Shown here in pieces: positions 10,329 to 55,037 of a stretch of 64,000 bases of DNA. The notes under the pieces were generated by a model. The model was given only the letters and a program-made list of their open reading frames with translations. It did no database searches and was not told the origin of the DNA. The translations under genes and the position numbers were made by a program. The number at the start of each line of letters is the position of its first letter. Positions within the stretch are counted from its first letter, which is position 1. Origin of the DNA: a virus; the IMG/VR virus record IMGVR_UViG_3300010412_000009, positions 5,770-69,769 of that record; one strand, written 5' to 3'.

Positions 10329-10784
10329 TTAATTAATCTTAATTGTCGTTGATTTCTTTTTTGTTTCCTCATTTTTTTTCATTCCAGGGATAAATAACGT
10401 TAGAATCCCATCCGCAATTGTTGCTTCCACTTTATTGAAATCAATTTCACCTGTTGGAAGACTGAAATCAATGGATTCTGTTCTTTTTTCTGAACCCAAA
10501 TTAACTTCTCTTTCACCTGAAACTGTTATTTGTCGATTTTCACCTGAGATATTAAGATTTTCTTTGTTGAATCCAGGTACTTTTATCAAAAAGTAACACC
10601 CATCATCAAGACATACTGTCTCATAGGTAATATCTCTATTATCCTCACCTTTCATCATTGGAGTACGTTTTGTTTCGTAATACATCCAAACAGGGTTCAT
10701 AAATTCATTTCTGGAATAAAAATCATGCCCAAAAAATTGCTCAAAAATGTTGTCAAAAGATCCAAAATAATTTTTCCTTCTCAT
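10329..10784 (-). CDS. Hsp20/alpha-crystallin small heat-shock protein
   Basis: VPGF.KE.L.I...ITVSGER and A...DGILTL.IP motifs. Confidence 0.85.
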   Translation of the reverse strand: MRRKNYFGSFDNIFEQFFGHDFYSRNEFMNPVWMYYETKRTPMMKGEDNRDITYETVCLDDGCYFLIKVPGFNKENLNISGENRQITVSGEREVNLGSEKRTESIDFSLPTGEIDFNKVEATIADGILTLFIPGMKKNEETKKKSTTIKIN

Positions 10785-10858
10785 AATATTTTTATTTTAT
10801 TAGTTTATTGTTAATTTACAAAAAATATCAATCAAAGTCAATGCCGATATTAATTCAA

Positions 10859-10893
10859 TGACAAAATGTCATATACAATATGTCGTTTTGACA
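10859..10893. promoter_or_regulatory. paired TGACA-N3-TGTCA-type boxes between divergent hsp20 and clpC
   Basis: perfect inverted repeat TGACAAAATGTCA at 10859-10871 and variant TGTCGTTTTGACA at 10881-10893. Confidence 0.5.
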
Positions 10894-10955
10894 GATAAAT
10901 TAACCTATGGACTTTTGGTATGTTTTTTCCTATAATTTAAAAAAAACTGAAAATT

Positions 10956-12959
10956 ATGTTGGATTATATGGATGACGGACCAAGTAAAGTAAGAAGTTCA
11001 GGTGGACAATCACAAACTCCAGTTCTTGACAATTTTAGTCGGGATTTGATTAAACTAGCCGAAGAAGGTAAATTAGACCCTGTTATTGGTAGAGATGATG
11101 AGATTAAACGTATTGCCCAAATACTAAGTAGAAGAAAGAAAAACAACCCAATTATTATTGGAGATCCTGGATGTGGTAAAACTGCAATTGTTGAGGGTTT
11201 GGCGATTAAGATTCAGAAAGGTGAATGTCCTCGTAACTTGGCGGATAAACGTATCGTGACATTAGACATCACATCATTAGTGGCAGGTACAAAGTACCGA
11301 GGTCAATTTGAGGAACGAATGAAAATTATTATGGATGAACTTAGAGACGATCCAAACACCATCATCTTCATTGATGAAATTCATACAATTGTTGGTGCCG
11401 GTAATGCCTCAGGTTCTTTGGATGCTTCAAATATTTTTAAACCCGCATTGGCAAGAGGTGAATTACAATGTATTGGTGCGACAACACTTGATGAGTATAA
11501 AAAACACATCGAGAAAGATGGTGCTCTTGAGAGGAGATTTCAAAAAATTATTGTCGATGGTACAACAAAAGAACAGACACTAACGATTTTAAAGAATATC
11601 AGACAATATTATGAAGATTATCATAAAGTTTCTTATTCTGATGAAATATTAGAGAAATGTGTTGAGTTAGCAGACAGATATATCACGGATAGAGAATTTC
11701 CCGATAAGGCAATTGATATTTTGGATGAAGTTGGATCAAGATGCAAAGTAGACATTAAATCTCCAACAATTATTGACGAATTAAAGAAAGAGGCTCAAAA
11801 AATTAAAGACGAAAAAATCAATGTAGTTCGAGAACAGAGATATGAAGAGGCTGCCAACTTAAGAGATAAGGAAAAGAAAATTCTAATCAAGTTAAAAACT
11901 GAGAACGAGAAGTTTGAAGATTCTTTGACTAAAGAAAAGAAAAAAGTTACACTGGATGTACTATATGATGTAATTTCAGGGATATCCAAAATACCAGTTC
12001 AAAAACTTTCATCAAACGAAACAAAAAGACTTAAACATCTCAGTGATAAATTGAAAGAGAATGTGATTGGGCAAGATATTGCTATCGATAAAATATCAAG
12101 ATCAATTAGAAGACATAGATTAGGTATTAATAACCCAAACAAACCCATTGGGTCATATATCTTTTTGGGTTCAACAGGTGTGGGCAAAACATTAATGGCA
12201 AAGAAAATTGCCGAGGAAGTATTTGGTAGTTCTGATGCCCTAATCAGAGTTGATATGTCTGAATATCAAGAAAAGCATTCAATATCAAAATTAATTGGTT
12301 CTCCTCCTGGATATATTGGTTACGATGATGGAGGACAATTAACAGATAAGGTTAAGAATAATCCATACTCTGTTATTCTTTTTGATGAAATTGAAAAGGC
12401 AAATTCAGATGTATTCTCAACATTACTTCAAGTTCTTGATGATGGACATATGACAGATGGTTTGGGAAGAAAGGTTAATTTTAAGAATACCATAATCATA
12501 ATGACATCAAACTTAGGGATTAAAAAATTACAAGAGTTTGGTAAAGGTATTGGTTTTGATACAAATAACGGATCCTTTGTCGATGCTGACATTAGAGAAC
12601 GTGAATTGAAGAAAGAACTTAAAAAGTTTTTTGCTCCTGAATTTTTAAATCGTATCGATGATATTATAGTATTTAATAATTTAAATCAAAACGATATTAG
12701 TAAAATTGTTGAAATTGAACTTAAAATTTTATCTGACAGGATGGATTCCTTGGGTTATAAGATATCTTTTGATGAGAGTATTATCAATCACATATCTGAA
12801 GTCGGATTTGATGATGTATATGGAGCAAGACCTCTAAAACGAGCAATTCAAAGTGAAGTTGAAGACTATATTTCCGATATGATAATTGATAATAAAATTA
12901 AAAAATCAAAATCATATCAGGTTAAATACGACTCGGAATCCAAATCTTGTACTATATAA
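10956..12959 (+). CDS. clpC: ClpC-type AAA+ unfoldase lacking the N-terminal Clp domain
   Basis: two Walker A ([16 protein letters not shown]), two Walker B, UVR-like coil [11 protein letters not shown], ClpP-docking IGF loop (GIGF). Confidence 0.88.
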
Positions 12960-12989
12960 AAAAAAGCCGTCAAATGACGGCTTTTTTTT
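12957..12989. terminator. bidirectional intrinsic terminator
   Basis: A-run, GCCGTCA-AA-TGACGGC hairpin, T-run. Confidence 0.88.
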
Positions 12990-13848
12990 AATCCCAAAGA
13001 CTATAATATCGTCTTAACTTATTGTTATGGTTATATAAATTATCCCCCTCATACTCGTAGTTTGAATATCCCAAACTTTCAATCATTCTTCTACCCAATT
13101 CAACCCCATTGAAAGTATCCTTTACTACTACATATTCATCTCTTCTGTGCATATTATAATATCCTATTGATATATTAATACACGAAAAATTGAATAGTTT
13201 TTTTAATGAATAAACGTCAGTATATGGATGTCTCATATATTCAAGATGATTTCCAACACCCTCTTTCAATATTTGATCGCATGTTTTGAAGAAATCCGAA
13301 TTCCTATCAAATAATACCTCACCAAAACACACTTCAGTAACCATGTAATCTTCTGGTGCGTCAAATTGTATTGCATATCCGACATTCTTAAAAAAGGACG
13401 GATCGGCATTTTTAGAACCAATACAACCTACTTCCTCAGACACAAAAAACGCCGCCTTCAAATAGGGTAATTCCTTTAGTAGTGTGAGACATGCGAATAC
13501 ACCACACTTATCATCACCACCAATACCTACAGGATATCCTGCATCGTTATACGCCTTCAAGGATAGTGATAAATTACCTTGAGAATCTTTAAGAGTTTCC
13601 TCTCTTACGTTAATAGTGTCGATGTGATGTACGGTATCCGTATGCGACACAACACAAGGGTAATACTCAGGCTCATTGTCATCTATTTTTTTTGTTGCAT
13701 AAACATTCAAATAAGTATCGACATAATATTCAATATTATTATCTTTAAGCCATTGAGTAATATACTCAACCATTCGATGTTCTTCAAATGTTTTTGTGGG
13801 TATTGATAATACCTCTTTCAGGAAATCTAAATCATACATACTATTCAT
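12988..13848 (-). CDS. M20/M28-family metallopeptidase
   Basis: SHTDTV, GGDDKCG, SEEVG and late His metal-ligand motifs. Confidence 0.8.
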   Translation of the reverse strand: MNSMYDLDFLKEVLSIPTKTFEEHRMVEYITQWLKDNNIEYYVDTYLNVYATKKIDDNEPEYYPCVVSHTDTVHHIDTINVREETLKDSQGNLSLSLKAYNDAGYPVGIGGDDKCGVFACLTLLKELPYLKAAFFVSEEVGCIGSKNADPSFFKNVGYAIQFDAPEDYMVTEVCFGEVLFDRNSDFFKTCDQILKEGVGNHLEYMRHPYTDVYSLKKLFNFSCINISIGYYNMHRRDEYVVVKDTFNGVELGRRMIESLGYSNYEYEGDNLYNHNNKLRRYYSLWD

Positions 13849-13862
13849 ATTAAATATTTACA

Positions 13863-13911
13863 CAAAGATACGTTTTTTTTTTGACATTCACAAATATTTA
13901 TCGTATATTTG
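13863..13911. promoter_or_regulatory. divergent Bacteroidota-type promoters for peptidase (-) and tmRNA (+)
   Basis: TATCTTTG on - strand at 13863-13870; TTTG at 13880 plus TATATTTG at 13904-13911 on + strand. Confidence 0.7.
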
Positions 13912-13932
13912 TATTGTGTTCTTTGAAAATAT

Positions 13933-14357
13933 GGGCCTAAATGGAATCGACGTGGTATTGATGTAATTAAGGCAGCTCGCAGTGTAATTCTATCCTGCGT
14001 TAAAAAGGAGAATTAATCAATAAGTGGCAATATCGCTTCTTCTTTGGCAATCGAGGCTGTTTTAAACAGTGACGTAAATGGTGGTCGTGCTATCAGCATG
14101 GTTTCCGAGCCAGTGGCTTTTGCAGAGGCTATTTAATCAAAATCTGCAGACTGACCTACCATGTGTAGGAACAGTAACGAATCCGTGAAAGCGGATTCTG
14201 ATCCGGCCTTTACCTATGGTAAGGGACTAACAAAGGCTTTCTTCGTAGTGCCAGTAAACAACGAAGTGGTGGAGTTGTCGGGATTCAATCCCAAATGGCT
14301 GTAATTCCTTAATTGCTGATTTATTTACGGACGTGGGTTCGATACCCACTAGGTCCA
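13933..14357 (+). ncRNA. ssrA: tmRNA
   Basis: 5' GGGCCTAAATGGAATCGAC; 3' T-arm GTGGG-TTCGATA-CCCAC and TAGGTCCA; acceptor with G3:U70; resume ATAAGT-GGC, tag ORF 14026-14136. Confidence 0.92.
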
Positions 14358-14360
14358 CTA

Positions 14361-14606
14361 AAACTCGTTGCCGTTGTGTCCGACACTTACGAGGGTTGTA
14401 ATACATCGAAAGGTGAAAATTCAACTACAAGTGCAATGATAGATTACTTAGGTAATCAAATTCGGACAAACTCATTCCCTAAAGTCCCTGATGTAATGAC
14501 ATCAAACTTTAGGTGTTTTTAATAATGTTAACATACACGACCCGCTTCCCATAAGAACAGCGTGCTGAGGCTTTGATGGATACGCGTCCATTATTAATCG
14601 TGTATT
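14361..14606 (+). ncRNA. unidentified structured RNA(s) directly downstream of tmRNA
   Basis: nested helices TGTCCGA/TCGGACA, CACTT/AAGTG, CATC-GAAA-GGTG, GATTAC/GTAATC, CCTAAAGT/ACTTTAGG, TACACGA/TCGTGTA; no credible ORF. Confidence 0.5.
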
Positions 14607-14613
14607 TTAAATT

Positions 14614-14647
14614 AAAAAAGGTAAGGAGAAATCCTTACCTTTTTTTT
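14614..14647. terminator. bidirectional intrinsic terminator
   Basis: AAAAAGGTAAGGA-GAAA-TCCTTACCTTTTT. Confidence 0.88.
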
Positions 14648-17279
14648 ATCCACATTTAGATGAACCACAATCTATACATCGGACACATCCTTCCTCAAAT
14701 ATTACTCTATCTGAACCACAGTCATAACAAGTACCATTAATTTTAGTACCGTCTTTAATGTATTTTTTCAATGCTCTAACAACACCTGACTTCCATGTAT
14801 TGATAGTGTCCTCAGTGAACGACATATTTTCAATTGTTTCGGTTACATAATATATCGGCATCCCATGTCTCAACATAGAACTAATCAATCTGGCATAATT
14901 CCAATATTCTTTATGAAATGCCTTTGACAATCCCTCAACAATACACTTGCCTTCTTCACAATCATATTCAAAGTCATAAGACTTATTACCATCTATTTTT
15001 GTCTTAATGATAATACCATCATCAATGTTATTAGGTACTTTAAACATATCTGATGGTCCGGTAAAGATCTCATAAGGTCTACCGTTCAACAAACCAACAA
15101 AGGCAATCCATTTCTCATATTTATTTTGAAATCTAATTACTTTACACGGTAACCTTTTAGGTCTTTTTGGAGCATCCACATCACCAAATGTTCGTTCAGT
15201 ATCTTTAGCGTCGTTACTAACCAAAACACCTGTACGACAACCATCTCGATATACAGTAACTCCTTTAAGTCCGGCATCCCATGCTTTCTCATAAATTTTT
15301 GCAACATCTTCTTCTGTTACATCATTTGGTAAGTTTATGGTTGACGATATTGAATGTGTTACATATTTTTGAATAATACCTTGTAATTCAACTCTTTTCT
15401 CCCAATCAATATCATTTGCAATACTTTGATACCAAGGAGATACCTCAAATAATTTCTGAACCTCCTCACTTGACATTCTCATTACTTGTTCATCTCGACT
15501 AATACCTGATATCATATCCTCAATATGCATTATCGCCCAATTCCTAAACTTAGGATGCATAACTGGATATTCCTGCCAATTATCTCCATTCTGATCTGTG
15601 AAATCAACTCTAACACCTTTATCATTTGGATTAATCTTCTTTCTACGCATATAATATGGTGAAAATAAAGGTTCAATACCTGAGGTTGTTTGTGTCATAA
15701 TTGATACAGAACCCGTAGGTGCGACAGTACTAAACGATATATTACGTCTACCGTACTTTTGCATTCTTGCAAATTGTTCAGGATATATTTGCTGAACAAA
15801 ATTATACCATCGATTACCACTTTTTTCAATATTAGGATCCCACCCTTTAAACGATCCTTTTAATATTGACATATCAATAGTTGCATCCAATTCTGCCTTC
15901 ATTATTGTATAATAAACAGAATCTATTATTTTAAAACTTTCGTTGGAATCGTATTTAACATTTAACGCCGCCAACATATCACCCAAGGAAGTAATACCAT
16001 TTCCTGTTCTTCTACCTGAAGATGCGACATCATAAATTTTTTCCCATAATTCAAGTTCAGTTCTTTTGGTGGTTTCGTCTTCCGGGTCTGATTTTATTTT
16101 ATTAATAATATTTTTAATATAACCTAATTCAATATCAACTAAAATATCGCCAAGATATTGTTGTTCATAACTGATTTGATATAATTTACCATAATCAATT
16201 TCTGCATTAACATTAAATGGGTTCTTAACAAAACTAAATAAATTCTTTGCAATCAACCTACATGCATCAAATGGTTGCATGAAAATTTCACCACAAGGAT
16301 TAGTGGTAATTCCACGATATTGTGGATATACACCATCGGGAGAATAATCCCAGTGGTTGTCGATAAAAATGATACCAGGTTCGGCAGAATCCCAAGCACA
16401 GTGAATAATGGTATTCCAATAATCACGAGCTTTAATTCTCTTAAAATAATGTTTACCACCGTCCTTAGTCTCTCTTTCAACAAGGACATTATACTCTTCC
16501 TGATCCATTTGAGCCATATCGCAGGCTTCTTGTGGTAAATCAACAGGAAACCTCAAGATGTAATCATCGTCATTCCTAACAGCCTCCATAAAGTCATTGG
16601 TTATCATTACAGATATATTAGCACCAGTAACTTTACTTCTATCTTGTTTTGCAGTAATAAATCCTAACGAATCAGGATGACGAATACTTGTACTCAACAT
16701 CAAAGCCCCTCTTCTACCATCCTGAGCAACTTCTCTCGTTGTATTTGAATACCTTTCCATAAATGACGGCATACCAGTTGAAGTAATGGCAGCGTTTTTA
16801 ACTCTTGTTTTTTCTGGACGAATTGTACTTAAATCCAAACCAACACCACCACGTCTCTTCATTAGTTGAGCCATTTCCTCATCTTTCTTACAGATTCCAC
16901 CATAGGAATCTTCGGGCTGACCGATGACAAAACAATTGCTAAGCGATCCAACCGAGCTTGTATTACCTAATTGAGACATTACCGATCCTTGAGGGACAAT
17001 GTAGTTGAAGTTTTTAAACAACTCGTAAATCTCGTCTTCGGATAGAATATTATTTCTTAATTTACCGTAATCGGATAATTCAATGTCTTCCTTATCGTTT
17101 GGGGGGTTTATAAATTGCGCATCATAGAAATGTTTCGCCAACCTTCTATGCATTTCATCAGGTGTTTTTTCAAAAAAACCATCCTCAGTTTTAAGTTGGT
17201 ACTTATTCATCCACACATCAGTTGCCAACTCATCACCATTAAAATAATCTAAAACGATTTGCCTATACTTATCATTCAT
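14646..17279 (-). CDS. nrdJ: class II (adenosylcobalamin-dependent) ribonucleotide reductase
   Basis: SNCFV, TNPCGE, VAPTGS, SSTINLP, KGVTVYRDG, C-terminal CxxC...CxxC; start chosen at MNDKY. Confidence 0.9.
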   Translation of the reverse strand: MNDKYRQIVLDYFNGDELATDVWMNKYQLKTEDGFFEKTPDEMHRRLAKHFYDAQFINPPNDKEDIELSDYGKLRNNILSEDEIYELFKNFNYIVPQGSVMSQLGNTSSVGSLSNCFVIGQPEDSYGGICKKDEEMAQLMKRRGGVGLDLSTIRPEKTRVKNAAITSTGMPSFMERYSNTTREVAQDGRRGALMLSTSIRHPDSLGFITAKQDRSKVTGANISVMITNDFMEAVRNDDDYILRFPVDLPQEACDMAQMDQEEYNVLVERETKDGGKHYFKRIKARDYWNTIIHCAWDSAEPGIIFIDNHWDYSPDGVYPQYRGITTNPCGEIFMQPFDACRLIAKNLFSFVKNPFNVNAEIDYGKLYQISYEQQYLGDILVDIELGYIKNIINKIKSDPEDETTKRTELELWEKIYDVASSGRRTGNGITSLGDMLAALNVKYDSNESFKIIDSVYYTIMKAELDATIDMSILKGSFKGWDPNIEKSGNRWYNFVQQIYPEQFARMQKYGRRNISFSTVAPTGSVSIMTQTTSGIEPLFSPYYMRRKKINPNDKGVRVDFTDQNGDNWQEYPVMHPKFRNWAIMHIEDMISGISRDEQVMRMSSEEVQKLFEVSPWYQSIANDIDWEKRVELQGIIQKYVTHSISSTINLPNDVTEEDVAKIYEKAWDAGLKGVTVYRDGCRTGVLVSNDAKDTERTFGDVDAPKRPKRLPCKVIRFQNKYEKWIAFVGLLNGRPYEIFTGPSDMFKVPNNIDDGIIIKTKIDGNKSYDFEYDCEEGKCIVEGLSKAFHKEYWNYARLISSMLRHGMPIYYVTETIENMSFTEDTINTWKSGVVRALKKYIKDGTKINGTCYDCGSDRVIFEEGCVRCIDCGSSKCG

Positions 17280-17307
17280 TTTTATTTTAATGATACTAAT
17301 TATATCA

Positions 17308-17883
17308 TTACTTGTCAATTGGAAGGTTCAATCCTTTTGCTATTCTTTGACTAATAAAATTATTTACAGTCTGTTGAAGTGATGTTGGTTCAGAATCTCC
17401 TTTTAAATCTAATGTTGGGTTTTTTGTTGTAACACCTTGTTTTTTATATCCAATATGGAAATGACCTCCTGTCGATCTGGAACTAGGGTTCTGATATTCA
17501 TCAATAAAGTGAAAATTAGGATATTTTGGAATTACTTTACCGACACAGTATTTACCATTTTTATATGGTTCTGATGTGAAATCAATTGCAAGCCCCTTTG
17601 GGTGAAGACTTTTTGGATCTCTAGAATGATACTTGTCATTACCTGCGGTTATTCTAAATTTACATCTAGGACAACATTTTGACATATCCCTAATGAAAGA
17701 CTGAAACTCTCGTGAAAATTCATAATCAATATCACCATTATTATCTAACTCGCCACTAGTACCACCTTTAACTTCAACGTTTGGGAGAGAACTAACAACC
17801 CTTTCCAACTCATCTGAATTGACAGCCTCAATCAAATATTTTTGAATTTCTCCATATTGTCTTTCATTTATTATTATTTTCAT
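17308..17883 (-). CDS. peptidase M15-like (LAS family) Zn protein with N-terminal leader
   Basis: H..G.AIDF and GHFHI motifs; N-terminus MKIIINERQY...LIE. Confidence 0.65.
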   Translation of the reverse strand: MKIIINERQYGEIQKYLIEAVNSDELERVVSSLPNVEVKGGTSGELDNNGDIDYEFSREFQSFIRDMSKCCPRCKFRITAGNDKYHSRDPKSLHPKGLAIDFTSEPYKNGKYCVGKVIPKYPNFHFIDEYQNPSSRSTGGHFHIGYKKQGVTTKNPTLDLKGDSEPTSLQQTVNNFISQRIAKGLNLPIDK

Positions 17884-17901
17884 ATGACAAGATTATGATT
17901 A

Positions 17902-18513
17902 TCAGATATGAATCCCTAAAGATTCTGTTTCTTGTTTAATATCTTTCAATATAAGTTCATTAAAAGTACCATCTGTAATATAATCCTCAGGTATCTCACT
18001 ATAAGCCCATTCAATACCAAGGACAGCAATTAGGTTTTTATTTTTATCGTAAATAGGGCAAGTTACAATTGCATAACTACCATGTGATTGGATTGTTGCT
18101 CTTGTAAAGACATCAGGAATTTCTTCAGTATCAGAATAACACATTTTCATATCTATCGTATTTTTAATTAACCAAGTGTAATGACTAACTAAAATATTAC
18201 GATATCTACCCGATAATCTTTCCAATCCGCCAGATGCAACTTCATATGTCATCGTTGACTTTTGCATAGGTAGATCAGTATAAAAATTACCACCATTATG
18301 ATATTGTATAATATATACTCTATCGGAATTATATTTACGCTTAATTTCGTTTAAAACGAAATGAATTACTTGGTCTTTTTCGACTTGTCTGACCACAAAT
18401 TTATCTTTTTTCTTATATTCGGATACTTTTCTAAAATAACCAGCAGATATCAGGGCGACAATTATAGACGAAAATGATATTATGAAAGATTCAATGATAT
18501 TAGTTATGTCCAT
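17902..18513 (-). CDS. single-TM protein with GAF-like domain, possible T4 T-type holin
   Basis: N-terminal hydrophobic helix; DRVYI...CPI...LIAVLGIEW GAF-like pattern; lies between two peptidoglycan hydrolases. Confidence 0.5.
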   Translation of the reverse strand: MDITNIIESFIISFSSIIVALISAGYFRKVSEYKKKDKFVVRQVEKDQVIHFVLNEIKRKYNSDRVYIIQYHNGGNFYTDLPMQKSTMTYEVASGGLERLSGRYRNILVSHYTWLIKNTIDMKMCYSDTEEIPDVFTRATIQSHGSYAIVTCPIYDKNKNLIAVLGIEWAYSEIPEDYITDGTFNELILKDIKQETESLGIHI

Positions 18514-18585
18514 AATAAAAAAAATGTTTAAAATAAATATTACATAAAATAAATATCATTAAATTCAAACAATACCCATATCAAG

Positions 18586-18801
18586 TCATATTCCTTTTTC
18601 TTTTTTGATATAGAACTTATTACGATTTTCTATCCAATCTGTAGATGTTTTAAACTCATTCCACGCAATCTCATCTTTTAATTCAGATAAAACCTCCTCC
18701 CTAACCAAAATAAATCCCTCAGGAGCAATTCTTTTGTACTTTTCATAGTAATGTTCCTTAATCTTATTTTTAATCCACTCAGGTAACGCATTTGATTCCA
18801 T
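18586..18801 (-). CDS. hypothetical protein
   Basis: ORF in operon. Confidence 0.55.
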   Translation of the reverse strand: MESNALPEWIKNKIKEHYYEKYKRIAPEGFILVREEVLSELKDEIAWNEFKTSTDWIENRNKFYIKKEKGI

Positions 18802-18813
18802 AATATATTAATT

Positions 18814-19524
18814 TTAAAATATACAAAAATAACAAATATTATCAGGTAATATGACAAAAGTATCTCTTTTATAACCATCATACAATGGATTTAGTTCATA
18901 TACTAAAGTGGAATCCAAATTAGTACACTCCAATATCCTATCAATAGTGATATACCCTTTAATTAAAAACTTATCATATTTATAATCATCAGGACATTCA
19001 AAATTTAAAAAAAGTTTTGAGTATCTCTTTACCTTACTAACAAATTGTTTTGTCTCCCTTGGAGATTCTTCCAATATCTCTCGATAAGAAAGACCTTCTT
19101 TCATTAATTTAAAAACATTACCCTCACCCCAATTCCAAGCAATTAAAACGTAATTCCAATCTTTGAATTTATCGTGTAGATATCTTAAATATTGACATGC
19201 GACTTCCGTTGACTTTAAAATACACATCCTCTCATCCAACTCATCGTCATAACTGATTTCATACATTTTAGCCACAATAGGTGTGATTTGCCAAGGACCA
19301 ACAGCCCCAACACCTGATTTAGCATTCAAACTTAACCCTGATTCTACAATAGGAATTACTTTATATTTTTCAGGAATATCATACTCATCAAAATATATGG
19401 ACATCAAGTCTGAAAACTTACACAACTCACTTAGTAGTTGTTTTTCGTAATAATTTTGAGAGGATAGGGGTGTTGATAATGCAATTAAAAATACATAAAT
19501 TAATGTTCTAATCATAATCGTCAC
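18814..19524 (-). CDS. lytic transglycosylase (SLT/MltD-like) with signal peptide
   Basis: IVESG catalytic Glu, GAVGPWQI, AWNWGEG motifs. Confidence 0.85.
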   Translation of the reverse strand: MTIMIRTLIYVFLIALSTPLSSQNYYEKQLLSELCKFSDLMSIYFDEYDIPEKYKVIPIVESGLSLNAKSGVGAVGPWQITPIVAKMYEISYDDELDERMCILKSTEVACQYLRYLHDKFKDWNYVLIAWNWGEGNVFKLMKEGLSYREILEESPRETKQFVSKVKRYSKLFLNFECPDDYKYDKFLIKGYITIDRILECTNLDSTLVYELNPLYDGYKRDTFVILPDNICYFCIF

Positions 19525-19561
19525 TTTTTTTTAACAAATAAAAGATAAATATACAAAAAAT

Positions 19562-20239
19562 ATGGAAAATTGCAATTATTTAGGACGTGAATTTCAGAAC
19601 TATTATGTTAATCACTTGGGAAACGGATCACTGGATCTTCACTATTTTGAAAATTCGATGACGCCTTACATCTTAGAAGAGAGGGAATTACGAGCAACAC
19701 AGATTGATATTTTCTCTCGGTTAATGAGAGATAGGATTTTATGGGTTGCGGGTCCTGTCAACGACAGAATGTCAACAATAGTACAAGCACAATTAATGTA
19801 CTTGGATTCTGTAGATACTATGGATATAACAATGCACATTGATTCTCCTGGTGGTTCTGTAAAGTCAGGGTTGAGTATGGTAGATGTGATGCATTATATA
19901 AATTCAGATATCAAAACTGTGAATACAGGATTGGCGGCTTCTATGGGTTCTGTATTATTGGCGGCAGGGACTAAGGGTAAGAGATCATCTCTAAGATTTT
20001 CCAGAACAATGCTACATCACTCATCCGCAGGGTTTCAGGGAAATATACAAGATGCCACAATAACATATGAACAATGGCAAAGATATAATCAAATTTTATT
20101 TGAACTTCTAGGCGATTTTTGTGGTAAAGATCCCGAACAAGTAAAAAAAGACGCTGAAAGAGATTTTTGGTTGAGTAGTGAAGAGGCTCTTAATTACGGG
20201 TTAATAGATAATATCATTCAAAAAAAAGGAGGGAAATAA
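19562..20239 (+). CDS. clpP: ATP-dependent Clp protease proteolytic subunit
   Basis: DIFSRLMRDRI, DSPGGSV, GLAASMGS (catalytic Ser), MLHH, ERDFWL, YGLID. Confidence 0.95.
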   Translation: MENCNYLGREFQNYYVNHLGNGSLDLHYFENSMTPYILEERELRATQIDIFSRLMRDRILWVAGPVNDRMSTIVQAQLMYLDSVDTMDITMHIDSPGGSVKSGLSMVDVMHYINSDIKTVNTGLAASMGSVLLAAGTKGKRSSLRFSRTMLHHSSAGFQGNIQDATITYEQWQRYNQILFELLGDFCGKDPEQVKKDAERDFWLSSEEALNYGLIDNIIQKKGGK

Positions 20240-25256: not shown

Positions 25257-27152
25257 TTAGTCAAACTTAGGTGTAAACATCCCATTTTCAATTTCTTCAT
25301 AATAATCACTTAACCATTTTGAGTTCTTAATCAATCTATCATTACCCGTCAAATTCAAAATCTGTAGGTTAGGAATATTCACAATTGATTTTGGTAAAGA
25401 ATCTATTGTACTATCCTTCAGTAGTAAGTATCTCAAATTTCTCAATTCTGATATTGAGTCTGAAAGTGTTTTAACATTATTAATCGCTAATGTCTCCAAG
25501 TTAGGGAATGATTCAATAAACTTATCTGTAAGTTCAACAGGTATCTTATCTGACGGTTCATAAGATATCTTATTCACTGATTTACCATAGTTAGAATAAA
25601 TGTCAACAAATTTATCAAATCCAAACAAATTCACAACTCTAGCAGGTAATGAATTATCATTTAATTTAAGTTGATTTGAGACACTTCCTGAAAAATCAGA
25701 GCTACTTAATCTTGATATCAACTCCTTTTTAATCTGTATTAGTTTATTAATTACCGACTTTTCATTAGTAGTATTAATCAAATATCTCAAAACATCATAG
25801 TCAGATTGGTCAATAGTTTTTAATGATTTATTATTAGATAATATGTTAGACATTCTATTTGAGATATAATAATTAATTATATCATCTGATGACATTTTAA
25901 TTTGATTATAGGTTAAATTAAACCCTAATGCAATGTATTTCTTTCTTAGAGAATCTGTTAAGTTTGAATATACGATATTCCCCCAACTACTTGGATTATC
26001 ATTATCTCCAAGACTAGGACTATTAATTTCCAACCAGATCTCAGCAGCCTCTTCACTACCAAGCTCTTTTATTGGATCACTTTGTATTCTAACATTTTTG
26101 TATTTAGAAAATAATTCTTCTTCCTCAGGAGTTAGCGGCTTTGGTTTAAATATATGCTCTAATCCTTTCAATTTAGGACATTTACTATATGCAGTATCCC
26201 AACTAACAATATGACCGCCACCATACGTTGAGTTACCTCTATCGGCAATACGAATATCCCCATCTCTATCAACAAGAATAACTAAAGCATAATCCAAATC
26301 ATCATAAGGTAAATCCTCATTAATTACAAAATATATCGTCAGGGATTTATCAAACCTATAGTTATAATACATGTTACCAGATCCCTTTCGACTAATACAC
26401 CAACTCCTACCTTTTGCTAATTGAATACATGCGTTTTTACTTTCACTTAAGTAAATTTTTAAGTTATTTTTATCATATACAAGGTTTAACTCTTCATCCC
26501 AAACCTTCCTACTCTCTTCCTTAGAGACACCATGTTTGGAGTTATAACTATCCACCAGATGTTCAAGTTCGGTAAAACTCATTGATGTTAGAATTTTAGA
26601 ATTAACATCAATATCATCAACAATTCGTAAATATGAGTCAATGTAGAATTTTACAATAGTATTATCTAAATTAGGTGTCTTCTTTTGAAAATATTGTGGT
26701 GCGTTTCTACGAATCAAGTCTTCATAATCTTTTTCAAGCATTTCAACTAGATCATAATAACCAATATTTTTGATATTTTGAAATTCCTTTGGTAGAAATG
26801 GTCTCACTTCCAAATACTTTTTAATTACCAATGATAATTGAGTTTTGTCAACTCCTTCTGTTGTTTTTTTGAAGTAGTTAAATATATTCTTTATCGTCTT
26901 ACCTGATGATTTTGCATCAATAAGAGTTTTCAACTCATCATAACTATATTTAAAAATGTCTCGTTGTTCAGGAGGTAACCCATTTTTATATCTACCAAAA
27001 GCTTCGATGTATTTTAATATTACATCATCACCATCAGTAGTTTGTGTCTTAAATTTCCCAACCAACTGATCAATAATCTTTTGATTAACCTCAGACAATC
27101 GAACTTTTGTTCTCGATTTAACCGCATTACTTAAACTATCTAATACTTTCAC
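25257..27152 (-). CDS. large protein with WCIS motif and C-terminal leucine-rich repeats
   Basis: GRSWCIS motif; NLETLAI, NLRYLLL, NLQILNL LRR-like units. Confidence 0.65.
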   Translation of the reverse strand: MKVLDSLSNAVKSRTKVRLSEVNQKIIDQLVGKFKTQTTDGDDVILKYIEAFGRYKNGLPPEQRDIFKYSYDELKTLIDAKSSGKTIKNIFNYFKKTTEGVDKTQLSLVIKKYLEVRPFLPKEFQNIKNIGYYDLVEMLEKDYEDLIRRNAPQYFQKKTPNLDNTIVKFYIDSYLRIVDDIDVNSKILTSMSFTELEHLVDSYNSKHGVSKEESRKVWDEELNLVYDKNNLKIYLSESKNACIQLAKGRSWCISRKGSGNMYYNYRFDKSLTIYFVINEDLPYDDLDYALVILVDRDGDIRIADRGNSTYGGGHIVSWDTAYSKCPKLKGLEHIFKPKPLTPEEEELFSKYKNVRIQSDPIKELGSEEAAEIWLEINSPSLGDNDNPSSWGNIVYSNLTDSLRKKYIALGFNLTYNQIKMSSDDIINYYISNRMSNILSNNKSLKTIDQSDYDVLRYLINTTNEKSVINKLIQIKKELISRLSSSDFSGSVSNQLKLNDNSLPARVVNLFGFDKFVDIYSNYGKSVNKISYEPSDKIPVELTDKFIESFPNLETLAINNVKTLSDSISELRNLRYLLLKDSTIDSLPKSIVNIPNLQILNLTGNDRLIKNSKWLSDYYEEIENGMFTPKFD

Positions 27153-54405: not shown

Positions 54406-54933
54406 TTATGCAAATTTAAATTGTTTCAACCATTTGCGAAGTTTTACTTGTGTCTCACCACCTATCATTTCTTCCCACTCATCATACACACCATCCACAC
54501 CTGGAAAATCATAATCTTCATTTCTCAACTCAAGATAATCTTCAAAGTCAGGAAAATTTTCCTTGTCCCAAATTCTATCATCAACCAGGAATACTACCGC
54601 AGTAAGTTGATTACCCAAGTCAGGTTCAACAAATTCAGCACATCGTATCTTATTATCCAATAACCAATCTCGGTGTTGATTTAGTGTTCCTTGAGCAATT
54701 CCTGAAAAATCTCGGTTGTGATTAGTCGTACCACCGTTCAGGATGATGAATGTTTTATCATTTGTCGCCCAATCATAATAAACAGATTCATATTCGGATT
54801 GTTCCAAACTAGTAATGTCTGTACAATATTTGAGTTGATATTCCACAACAGCGTGACCGAATTGGATGCCTTGCTGAATTGGTGATAAGTTATAAGGGAC
54901 TAACCCATACATTCTATACCTTCTTTGTTCCAT
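54406..54933 (-). CDS. peptidyl-tRNA hydrolase type 2-like protein
   Basis: L...Q..IQ.GHA, K..I.L, F.EPDL.NQLTA motifs; start moved to MEQRR. Confidence 0.65.
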   Translation of the reverse strand: MEQRRYRMYGLVPYNLSPIQQGIQFGHAVVEYQLKYCTDITSLEQSEYESVYYDWATNDKTFIILNGGTTNHNRDFSGIAQGTLNQHRDWLLDNKIRCAEFVEPDLGNQLTAVVFLVDDRIWDKENFPDFEDYLELRNEDYDFPGVDGVYDEWEEMIGGETQVKLRKWLKQFKFA

Positions 54934-54963
54934 ATTTATTTTGTGTTTTAATAAAAAAAATTG

Positions 54964-55037
54964 TTCCCCCGCTGGGGCTCGAACCCAGGACCCCCACTTT
55001 AAAAGAGTGGTGCATCTACCAACTGAGCTACGGAGGA
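54964..55037 (-). tRNA. tRNA-Lys(TTT), canonical size
   Basis: cloverleaf, loop CT-TTT-AA; same acceptor stem as 46000..46090. Confidence 0.9.

Follow-up and report, generated by a model that had tools for sequence, protein, structure and literature searches.

A 64,000-nucleotide (nt) stretch of the viral record IMGVR_UViG_3300010412_000009 (the window) encodes a transfer-messenger RNA (tmRNA) with a 36-codon tag and, beside it, a ClpC-type unfoldase without its N-domain and a small zinc exopeptidase. The order clpC-peptidase-tmRNA is conserved across related phages, and the tags of these relatives carry the mark of coding selection. We propose that the phage runs its own trans-translation, in which the tag feeds fragments to Clp unfoldases, including the headless ClpC, and the exopeptidase finishes the peptides. 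We regard this proposal as evenly balanced between right and wrong. From the arrangement we infer a role of the tag as degron, the protease that would read it and a role in salvage. All coordinates are positions in the window; the whole record measures 69.8 kb. The features that carry the argument are the following.

13933-14360, plus strand: one-piece tmRNA gene (Rfam RF00023, 71.3 bits)
14026-14136, plus strand: tag reading frame, from GGC at 14026 to AUU at 14133, with the UAA stop at 14134-14136
14120-14149, plus strand: helix 5 hairpin with the stop codon in its loop (RNAfold, 63 nt around the stop)
10956-12959, plus strand: ClpC-type double-ring AAA+ unfoldase without N-domain, 667 amino acids (aa; PDB 6em9 match)
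12988-13848, minus strand: single-domain clan MH (M20/M42-like) zinc exopeptidase, 286 aa, 85 nt from the tmRNA and divergent from it

The tmRNA gene matched RF00023 over the full length of the model (positions 1-374; E 1e-27; gathering cut-off 47 bits). Its acceptor stem, GGGCCUA/UAGGUCC, contains G3:U70, the pair required by alanyl-tRNA synthetase (AlaRS), and its T-arm reads GUGGGUUCGAUACCCAC (tmRNA sequence). As the 3' end is ACUA and CCA is not encoded, CCA must be added. ARAGORN called no tmRNA in the window. Among 31 tmRNAs of the clade (loci L086-L115 and the window) it called four and misplaced the tag in one of these; Rfam detected all 31. Surveys of huge phages that used ARAGORN, as the methods excerpt of PMC7162821 describes, therefore probably undercount tmRNAs. 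A blastn search in distant mode matched the window tmRNA to none of 50,697 phage records, and its exact 3' tRNA-like end occurred in none of the viral contigs and none of the metagenome contigs searched.

Translated, the tag frame yields GNIASSLAIEAVLNSDVNGGRAISMVSEPVAFAEAI, a peptide of 36 codons that ends in Glu-Ala-Ile. Rfam aligned the consensus resume codon to GGC 14026, and the window shares both the GGCAAY start and the reading frame with 66 relatives. For a related tmRNA with the same CAAUAAGU context, ARAGORN also began the tag at GGC. The original prediction had arrived at the identical frame, with the resume codon taken by analogy, and had allowed for a different resume frame; given the Rfam alignment and the conservation of the frame in relatives, the GGC 14026 frame holds. 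The +1 frame (GCA 14027, 12 codons) was rejected on the same two grounds. At its other end the frame closes in the loop of helix 5, the usual place of a tmRNA stop codon. This helix has 7 bp (14120-14126 with 14143-14149), a layout repeated in 7 of 7 relatives folded. Run X5, which belongs to another study, contains contigs that match the window without a single difference over 13911-14128 and 14105-14431, so the long frame is not an assembly error.

A ClpC search returned at least 598 viral contigs, of which the best 80 were kept (63-69% identity), and these 80 ClpC loci were scanned with our own tmRNA profile. A tmRNA was found in 66, always on the clpC strand and 1101-4020 nt beyond the peptidase gene. 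The 14 loci that yielded none all end within 1450 nt beyond the peptidase or at clpC itself. The order clpC-peptidase-tmRNA is kept in 66 of the 66 loci long enough to judge, and Rfam reported a tmRNA above its cut-off in 38 of 49 whole records. The peptidase gene adjoins clpC in 78 of the 80 loci, the remaining two ending at clpC. The surroundings are less constant: a homologue of the small heat-shock protein Hsp20 lies upstream of clpC in 18 of 79 related loci, and none of the 80 encodes ClpP or ribonucleotide reductase within 10 kb of clpC. A constant trio between varying flanks marks clpC-peptidase-tmRNA as the conserved core. Since ribonucleotide reductase stands within this distance of clpC in none of the 80 relatives, the lineage of the window has undergone a rearrangement on the right side of the module.

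The relatives' tags comprise 21 codons in 48 loci and 22 in 18, with 45 distinct versions. They begin with Gly or Asp, followed by Asn, Glu or Asp, and Gly-Leu occupies positions 11-12. Across the three codon positions, column entropy was 17.2, 12.6 and 25.6. The ratio of synonymous to non-synonymous codon differences was 3117:6694 in the tag frame, compared with 1785:8822 and 787:9996 in the two shifted ones. This excess of third-position variation and of synonymous change indicates that the relatives' tags are translated and selected as peptides.

With 66 relatives at 21-22 codons, and with 9-residue tags in five Bacteroidota tmRNAs examined (ends ...YALAA or ...YAMAA), the 36-codon tag of the window is a lineage-specific outlier. 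Its alignment to the relatives' tags is secure for the first three residues only. Inside the frame is a weak direct repeat, with GAGGCTGTTT at 14053-14062 and GAGGCTATTT at 14125-14134, 72 nt apart. The local self-alignment score of the tag was reached by 26 of 1000 shuffles, a weak hint that an internal duplication may have given rise to the long tag.

A further gene, encoding 348-461 aa, lies between peptidase and tmRNA in relatives (for example L016:12887-14272, minus strand, and L061:13529-14575, minus strand). With these two as queries, tblastn over the 80 related loci gave 75 and 58 hit rows, respectively. The gene belongs to no Pfam or PHROG family. The window, which has the aberrant tag, also contains no homologue of this candidate partner of the system. 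New in the window, then, are the 36-codon tag, a ClpP gene nearby and the missing spacer gene.

The best PDB match of the unfoldase was Staphylococcus aureus ClpC (6em9, E 8.8e-212). The match covers ClpC residues 155-798, and no Clp_N Pfam match was found in the window protein. Upstream of the gene only 171 nt remain before hsp20. The relatives' ClpC open reading frames (ORFs) are 664-719 aa long, and in 78 of 78 they are preceded by no more than 44 open codons. With its N-domain missing, the protein is ClpC-like, not a full ClpC. The original prediction of a ClpC-type ATPase with an IGF loop is sustained by the alignment and by the loop, and needs this qualifier. Two Walker A/B pairs are present (Walker A at 69 and 405), together with KYRG and GYIG pore loops and the ClpP-docking IGF at 532-534. 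In the relatives KYRG, GY[VI]G, both Walker B motifs and [IVL]GF occur in 80 of 80. A short coiled-coil M-domain aligns continuously to that of S. aureus ClpC, with a weak Pfam UVR match at 277-309, and places Tyr296 opposite S. aureus F436. ClpC and ClpP form a textbook pair, and the retention of all catalytic and pore motifs and of the ClpP loop throughout the 80 suggests that the phage ClpC is built to work with ClpP.

Biochemical work on S. aureus ClpC bears on how such a protein could meet a tag. According to PMC12583610, the SsrA degron is read by the pore and not by the N-domain, and an N-domain-less F436A variant degrades SsrA-tagged green fluorescent protein (GFP-SsrA) as well as the MecA-activated wild type. 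Because the ClpC pore reads SsrA and loss of the N-domain favors degradation of GFP-SsrA once the M-domain contacts are broken, a link between tag and headless ClpC is mechanistically reasonable.

The third member of the trio matched PHROG 4191 ('peptidase', 1.8e-38) and fell below two Pfam cut-offs (Peptidase_M42, 21.3 vs 23.2; Peptidase_M20, 19.0 vs 24.6). Its AlphaFold2 model (predicted local distance difference test score, pLDDT, 89.9) was matched by Foldseek to PepT 3gb0 (5e-14) and to TET/M42 aminopeptidases (~1e-13); the lid/dimerization segment of PepT is absent. H68, D70, H73, D111, E137, E138, D162 and H233 are invariant in 39 peptidase sequences. Of these, H68, D70, D111, E137-E138, D162 and H233 fit a co-catalytic metal site, with the metal role of each residue assigned tentatively from the motif pattern. 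Fold and invariant metal residues agree with clan MH M20/M42, in line with the earlier call of an M20/M28 peptidase divergent from the tmRNA. The window protein gave 69 pattern matches in metagenome contigs, with no relative among them.

Two further genes of the neighborhood complete the proposed set.

19562-20239, plus strand: ClpP, 225 aa, with ~30 extra N-terminal residues (Pfam CLP_protease 3.5e-57, 193.6 bits)
10329-10784, minus strand: Hsp20/alpha-crystallin small heat-shock protein, divergent from clpC (Pfam HSP20 1.2e-10, residues 65-150)

Both identities had been proposed from the letters of the DNA and stand. For ClpP, the Pfam match is joined by a Ser-His-Asp triad that aligns with PDB 8r04. 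NCBIfam ClpP models scored 225 bits, below the equivalog cut-off of 361, and the head-maturation model 67.8 (cut-off 120). An N-terminal motif is shared with Bacteroidota ClpP. The NCBIfam scores and this Bacteroidota-type N-terminus led us to reject the PHROG label of prohead protease. For Hsp20, the Pfam match is accompanied by one to PHROG 432 (2.4e-4).

The window is part of a T4-like jumbo phage of ~320 kb. CheckV rates the 69.8-kb record as 21% complete, a T4-type portal and terminase are encoded in the window, and the complete genomes among the 80 ClpC relatives measure 309-321 kb. The host phylum is probably Bacteroidota. A scan with the ClpP alignment, taking one genome per species, gave 39 loci at 41-73% identity, 37 of them Bacteroidota by title and mostly Flavobacteriales; as the scan sees only sequences with both N-terminal patterns, it is a pointer and no survey. 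The runs that hold the window sequence are labelled marine sediment, and none of the 20 listed is an RNA dataset.

The best match of the ClpP scan, at 73% identity to the window ClpP, was G056:C291, a 254-kb phage-like contig binned into a Bacteroidetes metagenome-assembled genome. This contig (loci L132, L176, L177 and L181) encodes a tmRNA, the tmRNA partner protein SmpB, ClpP and a 661-aa headless ClpC, all far apart, and its tmRNA tag has 24 codons. The metagenome-assembled genome has its own tmRNA with a 9-residue tag, and the binning may reflect a phage-host pair.

On our proposal, the tmRNA would be transcribed from its own promoter, trimmed, completed with CCA and charged by the host AlaRS via G3:U70. 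Together with SmpB, supplied by the host or by a gene in another part of the phage genome, it would enter ribosomes stalled on broken mRNAs. Translation would resume at GGC 14026 and add Ala plus 36 residues. Tagged fragments would pass to the N-domain-less phage ClpC working on phage or host ClpP, and possibly to host ClpXP as well. The M20/M42-like exopeptidase would then trim the resulting peptides down to amino acids. Overall, ribosomes would thereby be freed and amino acids recycled during infection. That the Hsp20-ClpC-peptidase-ClpP block and the tmRNA form one private tag-and-degrade pathway is plausible.

Several observations weigh against this proposal. The first concern its parts list. 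SmpB was not found in the 69.8-kb record, 21% complete as it is. A search for smpB had been suggested with the original prediction, and what it turned up, a point in favor of the proposal, lies elsewhere in the clade: SmpB is encoded by two of three complete relatives (G006 and G050) and by the more distant G056:C291. ClpP lies ~5 kb from the tmRNA in the window only and near it in 0 of the 80 related loci. It was found in G050, G051, G038 and the window, and not in G006. The two genes are patchy together as well, with ClpP and no SmpB in G051, SmpB and no ClpP in G006, and both in G050.

Others concern the tag and its presumed reader. The tag of the window is without the Gly-Leu of its clade at positions 11-12, and its end, back-translated, gave 0 matches in viral contigs, where no close relative was found. 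S. aureus ClpC deprived of the N-domain alone is proteolytically inactive (PMC12583610). The residue opposite F436 is Tyr or Phe in the eight commonest variants, which account for 75 of 80 loci. An aromatic residue kept at this position implies that the phage ClpC may need an activator.

Linkage is the last such point. The conserved order was found within one clade and may be inherited instead of selected. Farther out, LR756502 and LR745206 encode a headless ClpC (55% identity) with no tmRNA above the Rfam cut-off, in LR756508 tmRNA and headless ClpC are ~360 kb apart, and in G056:C291 the tmRNA (at 15 kb) and ClpC (at 150 kb) are unlinked.

These cases of separation suit a simpler account, in which the genes are neighbors only. 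The tmRNA would serve ribosome rescue, the host would handle the tag, and the Clp, Hsp20 and peptidase genes would form a tag-independent set for proteostasis or amino-acid salvage. Hsp20, beside clpC in so few of the related loci, fits this account too. So do phage G (PMC12484599) and Sinorhizobium phage AP-J-162 (PMC11242549), for which the available text lists tmRNA and Clp genes with no link proposed. This account must accommodate, however, that the trio is intact in all evaluable loci although its flanks change, and that the relatives have long tags whose protein sequence is conserved. Such tags suggest a reader of more than the last three residues. We consider the simpler account possible but doubtful, and keep to the proposal that tag and Clp machinery act together.

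The opposite extreme was contained in the original prediction: an orthogonal circuit in which the ...AEAI tag is invisible to host ClpXP and read only by phage ClpC-ClpP, so that the phage alone decides the fate of the chain. A 36-codon tag ending in Glu-Ala-Ile, set against the short ...YALAA or ...YAMAA tags of Bacteroidota, speaks for such a circuit, as does the presence of both ClpC and ClpP in the window. A precedent for a protease switch with a long tag exists in Mesoplasma ssrA and Lon, as described in excerpts of PMC9382460. The relatives tell against it. Their tags end in Ala after apolar residues in 65 of 66 cases, with Ile in one, and look canonical; insulation is therefore not apparent for the clade at large. 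G006, a complete genome that encodes no ClpP, keeps the IGF loop and must therefore use host ClpP. That an ...AEAI end may escape ClpX is an extrapolation from work on Escherichia coli. We think such a circuit improbable. The same low standing applies to its mechanistic form, a private degron in which the headless ClpC, running on phage or host ClpP, takes the long tag straight into its pore and ...AEAI, in this lineage, no longer fits host ClpXP.

Least probable of all, to our minds, is a drifted tag, that is, a frame lengthened by insertion, duplication or loss of a stop, with neutral extra residues and rescue intact. It would explain why this is the sole tmRNA of 67 with more than 22 codons, why the clade motif is missing, the weak internal repeat and perhaps the loss of the relatives' 348-461-aa gene, but the stop still lies in the helix-5 loop as in relatives, the tRNA-like domain and Rfam score are intact, a lengthened tag, of 24 codons, occurs in the 254-kb sister-group contig as well, and the same sequence was recovered in two studies.

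The DNA around the tmRNA holds putative signals for its expression as a separate unit.

13881-13911, plus strand: promoter-like site TTGACA-17-TATATT (11/12 consensus matches)
14620-14647, no strand assigned: hairpin with a T-run, and an A-run on the other side, likely a two-way terminator (read from the sequence)

The promoter-like site is a strong one; it ends 24 nt upstream of the tmRNA 5' end and overlaps a TAnnTTTG motif at 13904-13911. This motif, which we take to be the Bacteroidota -7 box, occurs within 80 nt upstream of 54 of 67 tmRNAs, compared with 267 of 4000 random 80-nt windows. Downstream, the likely terminator separates the tmRNA unit from the convergent gene for the ribonucleotide reductase large subunit (14646-17318, minus strand; Pfam 2.7e-80). 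The hairpin is absent from the terminator-scan output, and a sub-threshold Rfam match to 'Termite-leu' (14585-14646) corresponds to it. Between the tmRNA 3' end and the terminator, ~260 nt (14361-14619) contain no convincing ORF or Rfam match and could be a 3' trailer or a small RNA. The possibility that the tmRNA is an integration-site remnant was rejected, as it is full length and lies on a T4-like, lytic-type contig with portal and terminase.

Some ~25 kb from the tmRNA begins an array of 18 tRNA genes, all on the minus strand (39186-63533), with small ORFs between them and three tRNAs of the tRNA-Met(CAT) type. That the tmRNA sits in the proteolysis block and at this distance from the tRNA genes counts in favor of the proposal. 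One ORF within the array had been put forward as a Pth2-like gene.

54406-54933, minus strand: candidate distant Pth2-like hydrolase (PHROG 3668 'hydrolase', 8.4e-18)

The longer ORF overlaps tRNA-Lys (54963-55037), and the start given here is therefore that of the Atlas record. There was no Pfam match up to E 1, PF01981 included, and no PDB sequence match. Its Atlas neighbors are viral clusters in which 21% of members have PF01981, and template modeling (TM) scores to PTH2 clusters were 0.57-0.60. The gene is thus a lead only, which the PHROG match and the Atlas neighbors suggest. Elsewhere in the window, a 631-aa protein (25257-27152, minus strand) has weak leucine-rich-repeat matches near its C-terminus, below Pfam cut-offs, which is unusual for a phage.

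Our data raise the question of whether rescued translation products are redirected by a virus to a protease of its own. Four features make the question testable: the tmRNA stays coupled to genes for an unfoldase and an exopeptidase clade-wide; the relatives' tags are conserved as protein; the tags exceed those of the likely hosts two- to fourfold in length; and the phage unfoldase is naturally without the domain that hinders SsrA degradation in S. aureus ClpC. If such redirection takes place, it would represent a further level of host takeover and supply new tag/protease pairs for synthetic biology.

Compared with bacterial trans-translation and its Clp proteases, where ssrA is read by ClpXP, ClpAP and the ClpC pore, much is familiar. 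The window has a one-piece tmRNA with G3:U70, a resume codon and a helix 5 that holds the stop, and the end of its tag is apolar; it also encodes ClpP and a double-ring Clp ATPase that has the IGF loop. Unlike the bacterial system, it is encoded by a virus, its tag has 36 codons rather than the 9 of the Bacteroidota examined and ends in Ile, its ClpC is naturally without the N-domain, and SmpB is not on the fragment.

Phage tmRNAs are known from Bxz1-like mycobacteriophages and from phage G (excerpts of PMC4131195). Huge phages have been described with tmRNA and some with SmpB in PMC7162821, a text in which 'Clp' is not mentioned. The available text on phage G reports tmRNA, ClpP and ClpX (PMC12484599), and that on Sinorhizobium phage AP-J-162 reports tmRNA, six Clp genes and Hsp20 (PMC11242549). 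The literature searched, supplementary tables not covered, yielded no paper linking a phage tmRNA tag to a ClpC or protease pathway. Like the Bxz1 group, phage G and the huge phages, the phage described here is large and tRNA-rich and has a tmRNA. Unlike in these, its tmRNA keeps a fixed place beside the genes for a headless ClpC and a small exopeptidase throughout a large clade, and its tag is much longer than the 13 residues of phage G.

A further close comparison is Mesoplasma florum, in which, according to excerpts of PMC9382460, ssrA and Lon show that a tag and a protease can co-evolve into a separate pair. There too the tag is longer than that of E. coli, and it is read by a protease other than ClpXP. 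That system is cellular, uses Lon and was demonstrated by experiment, whereas here the pairing is read from gene neighborhood alone. Should the private degron nonetheless prove real, the phage would have every step between the stalled ribosome and the free amino acids in its own hands and would provide a natural viral counterpart of the Mesoplasma ssrA/Lon pair.

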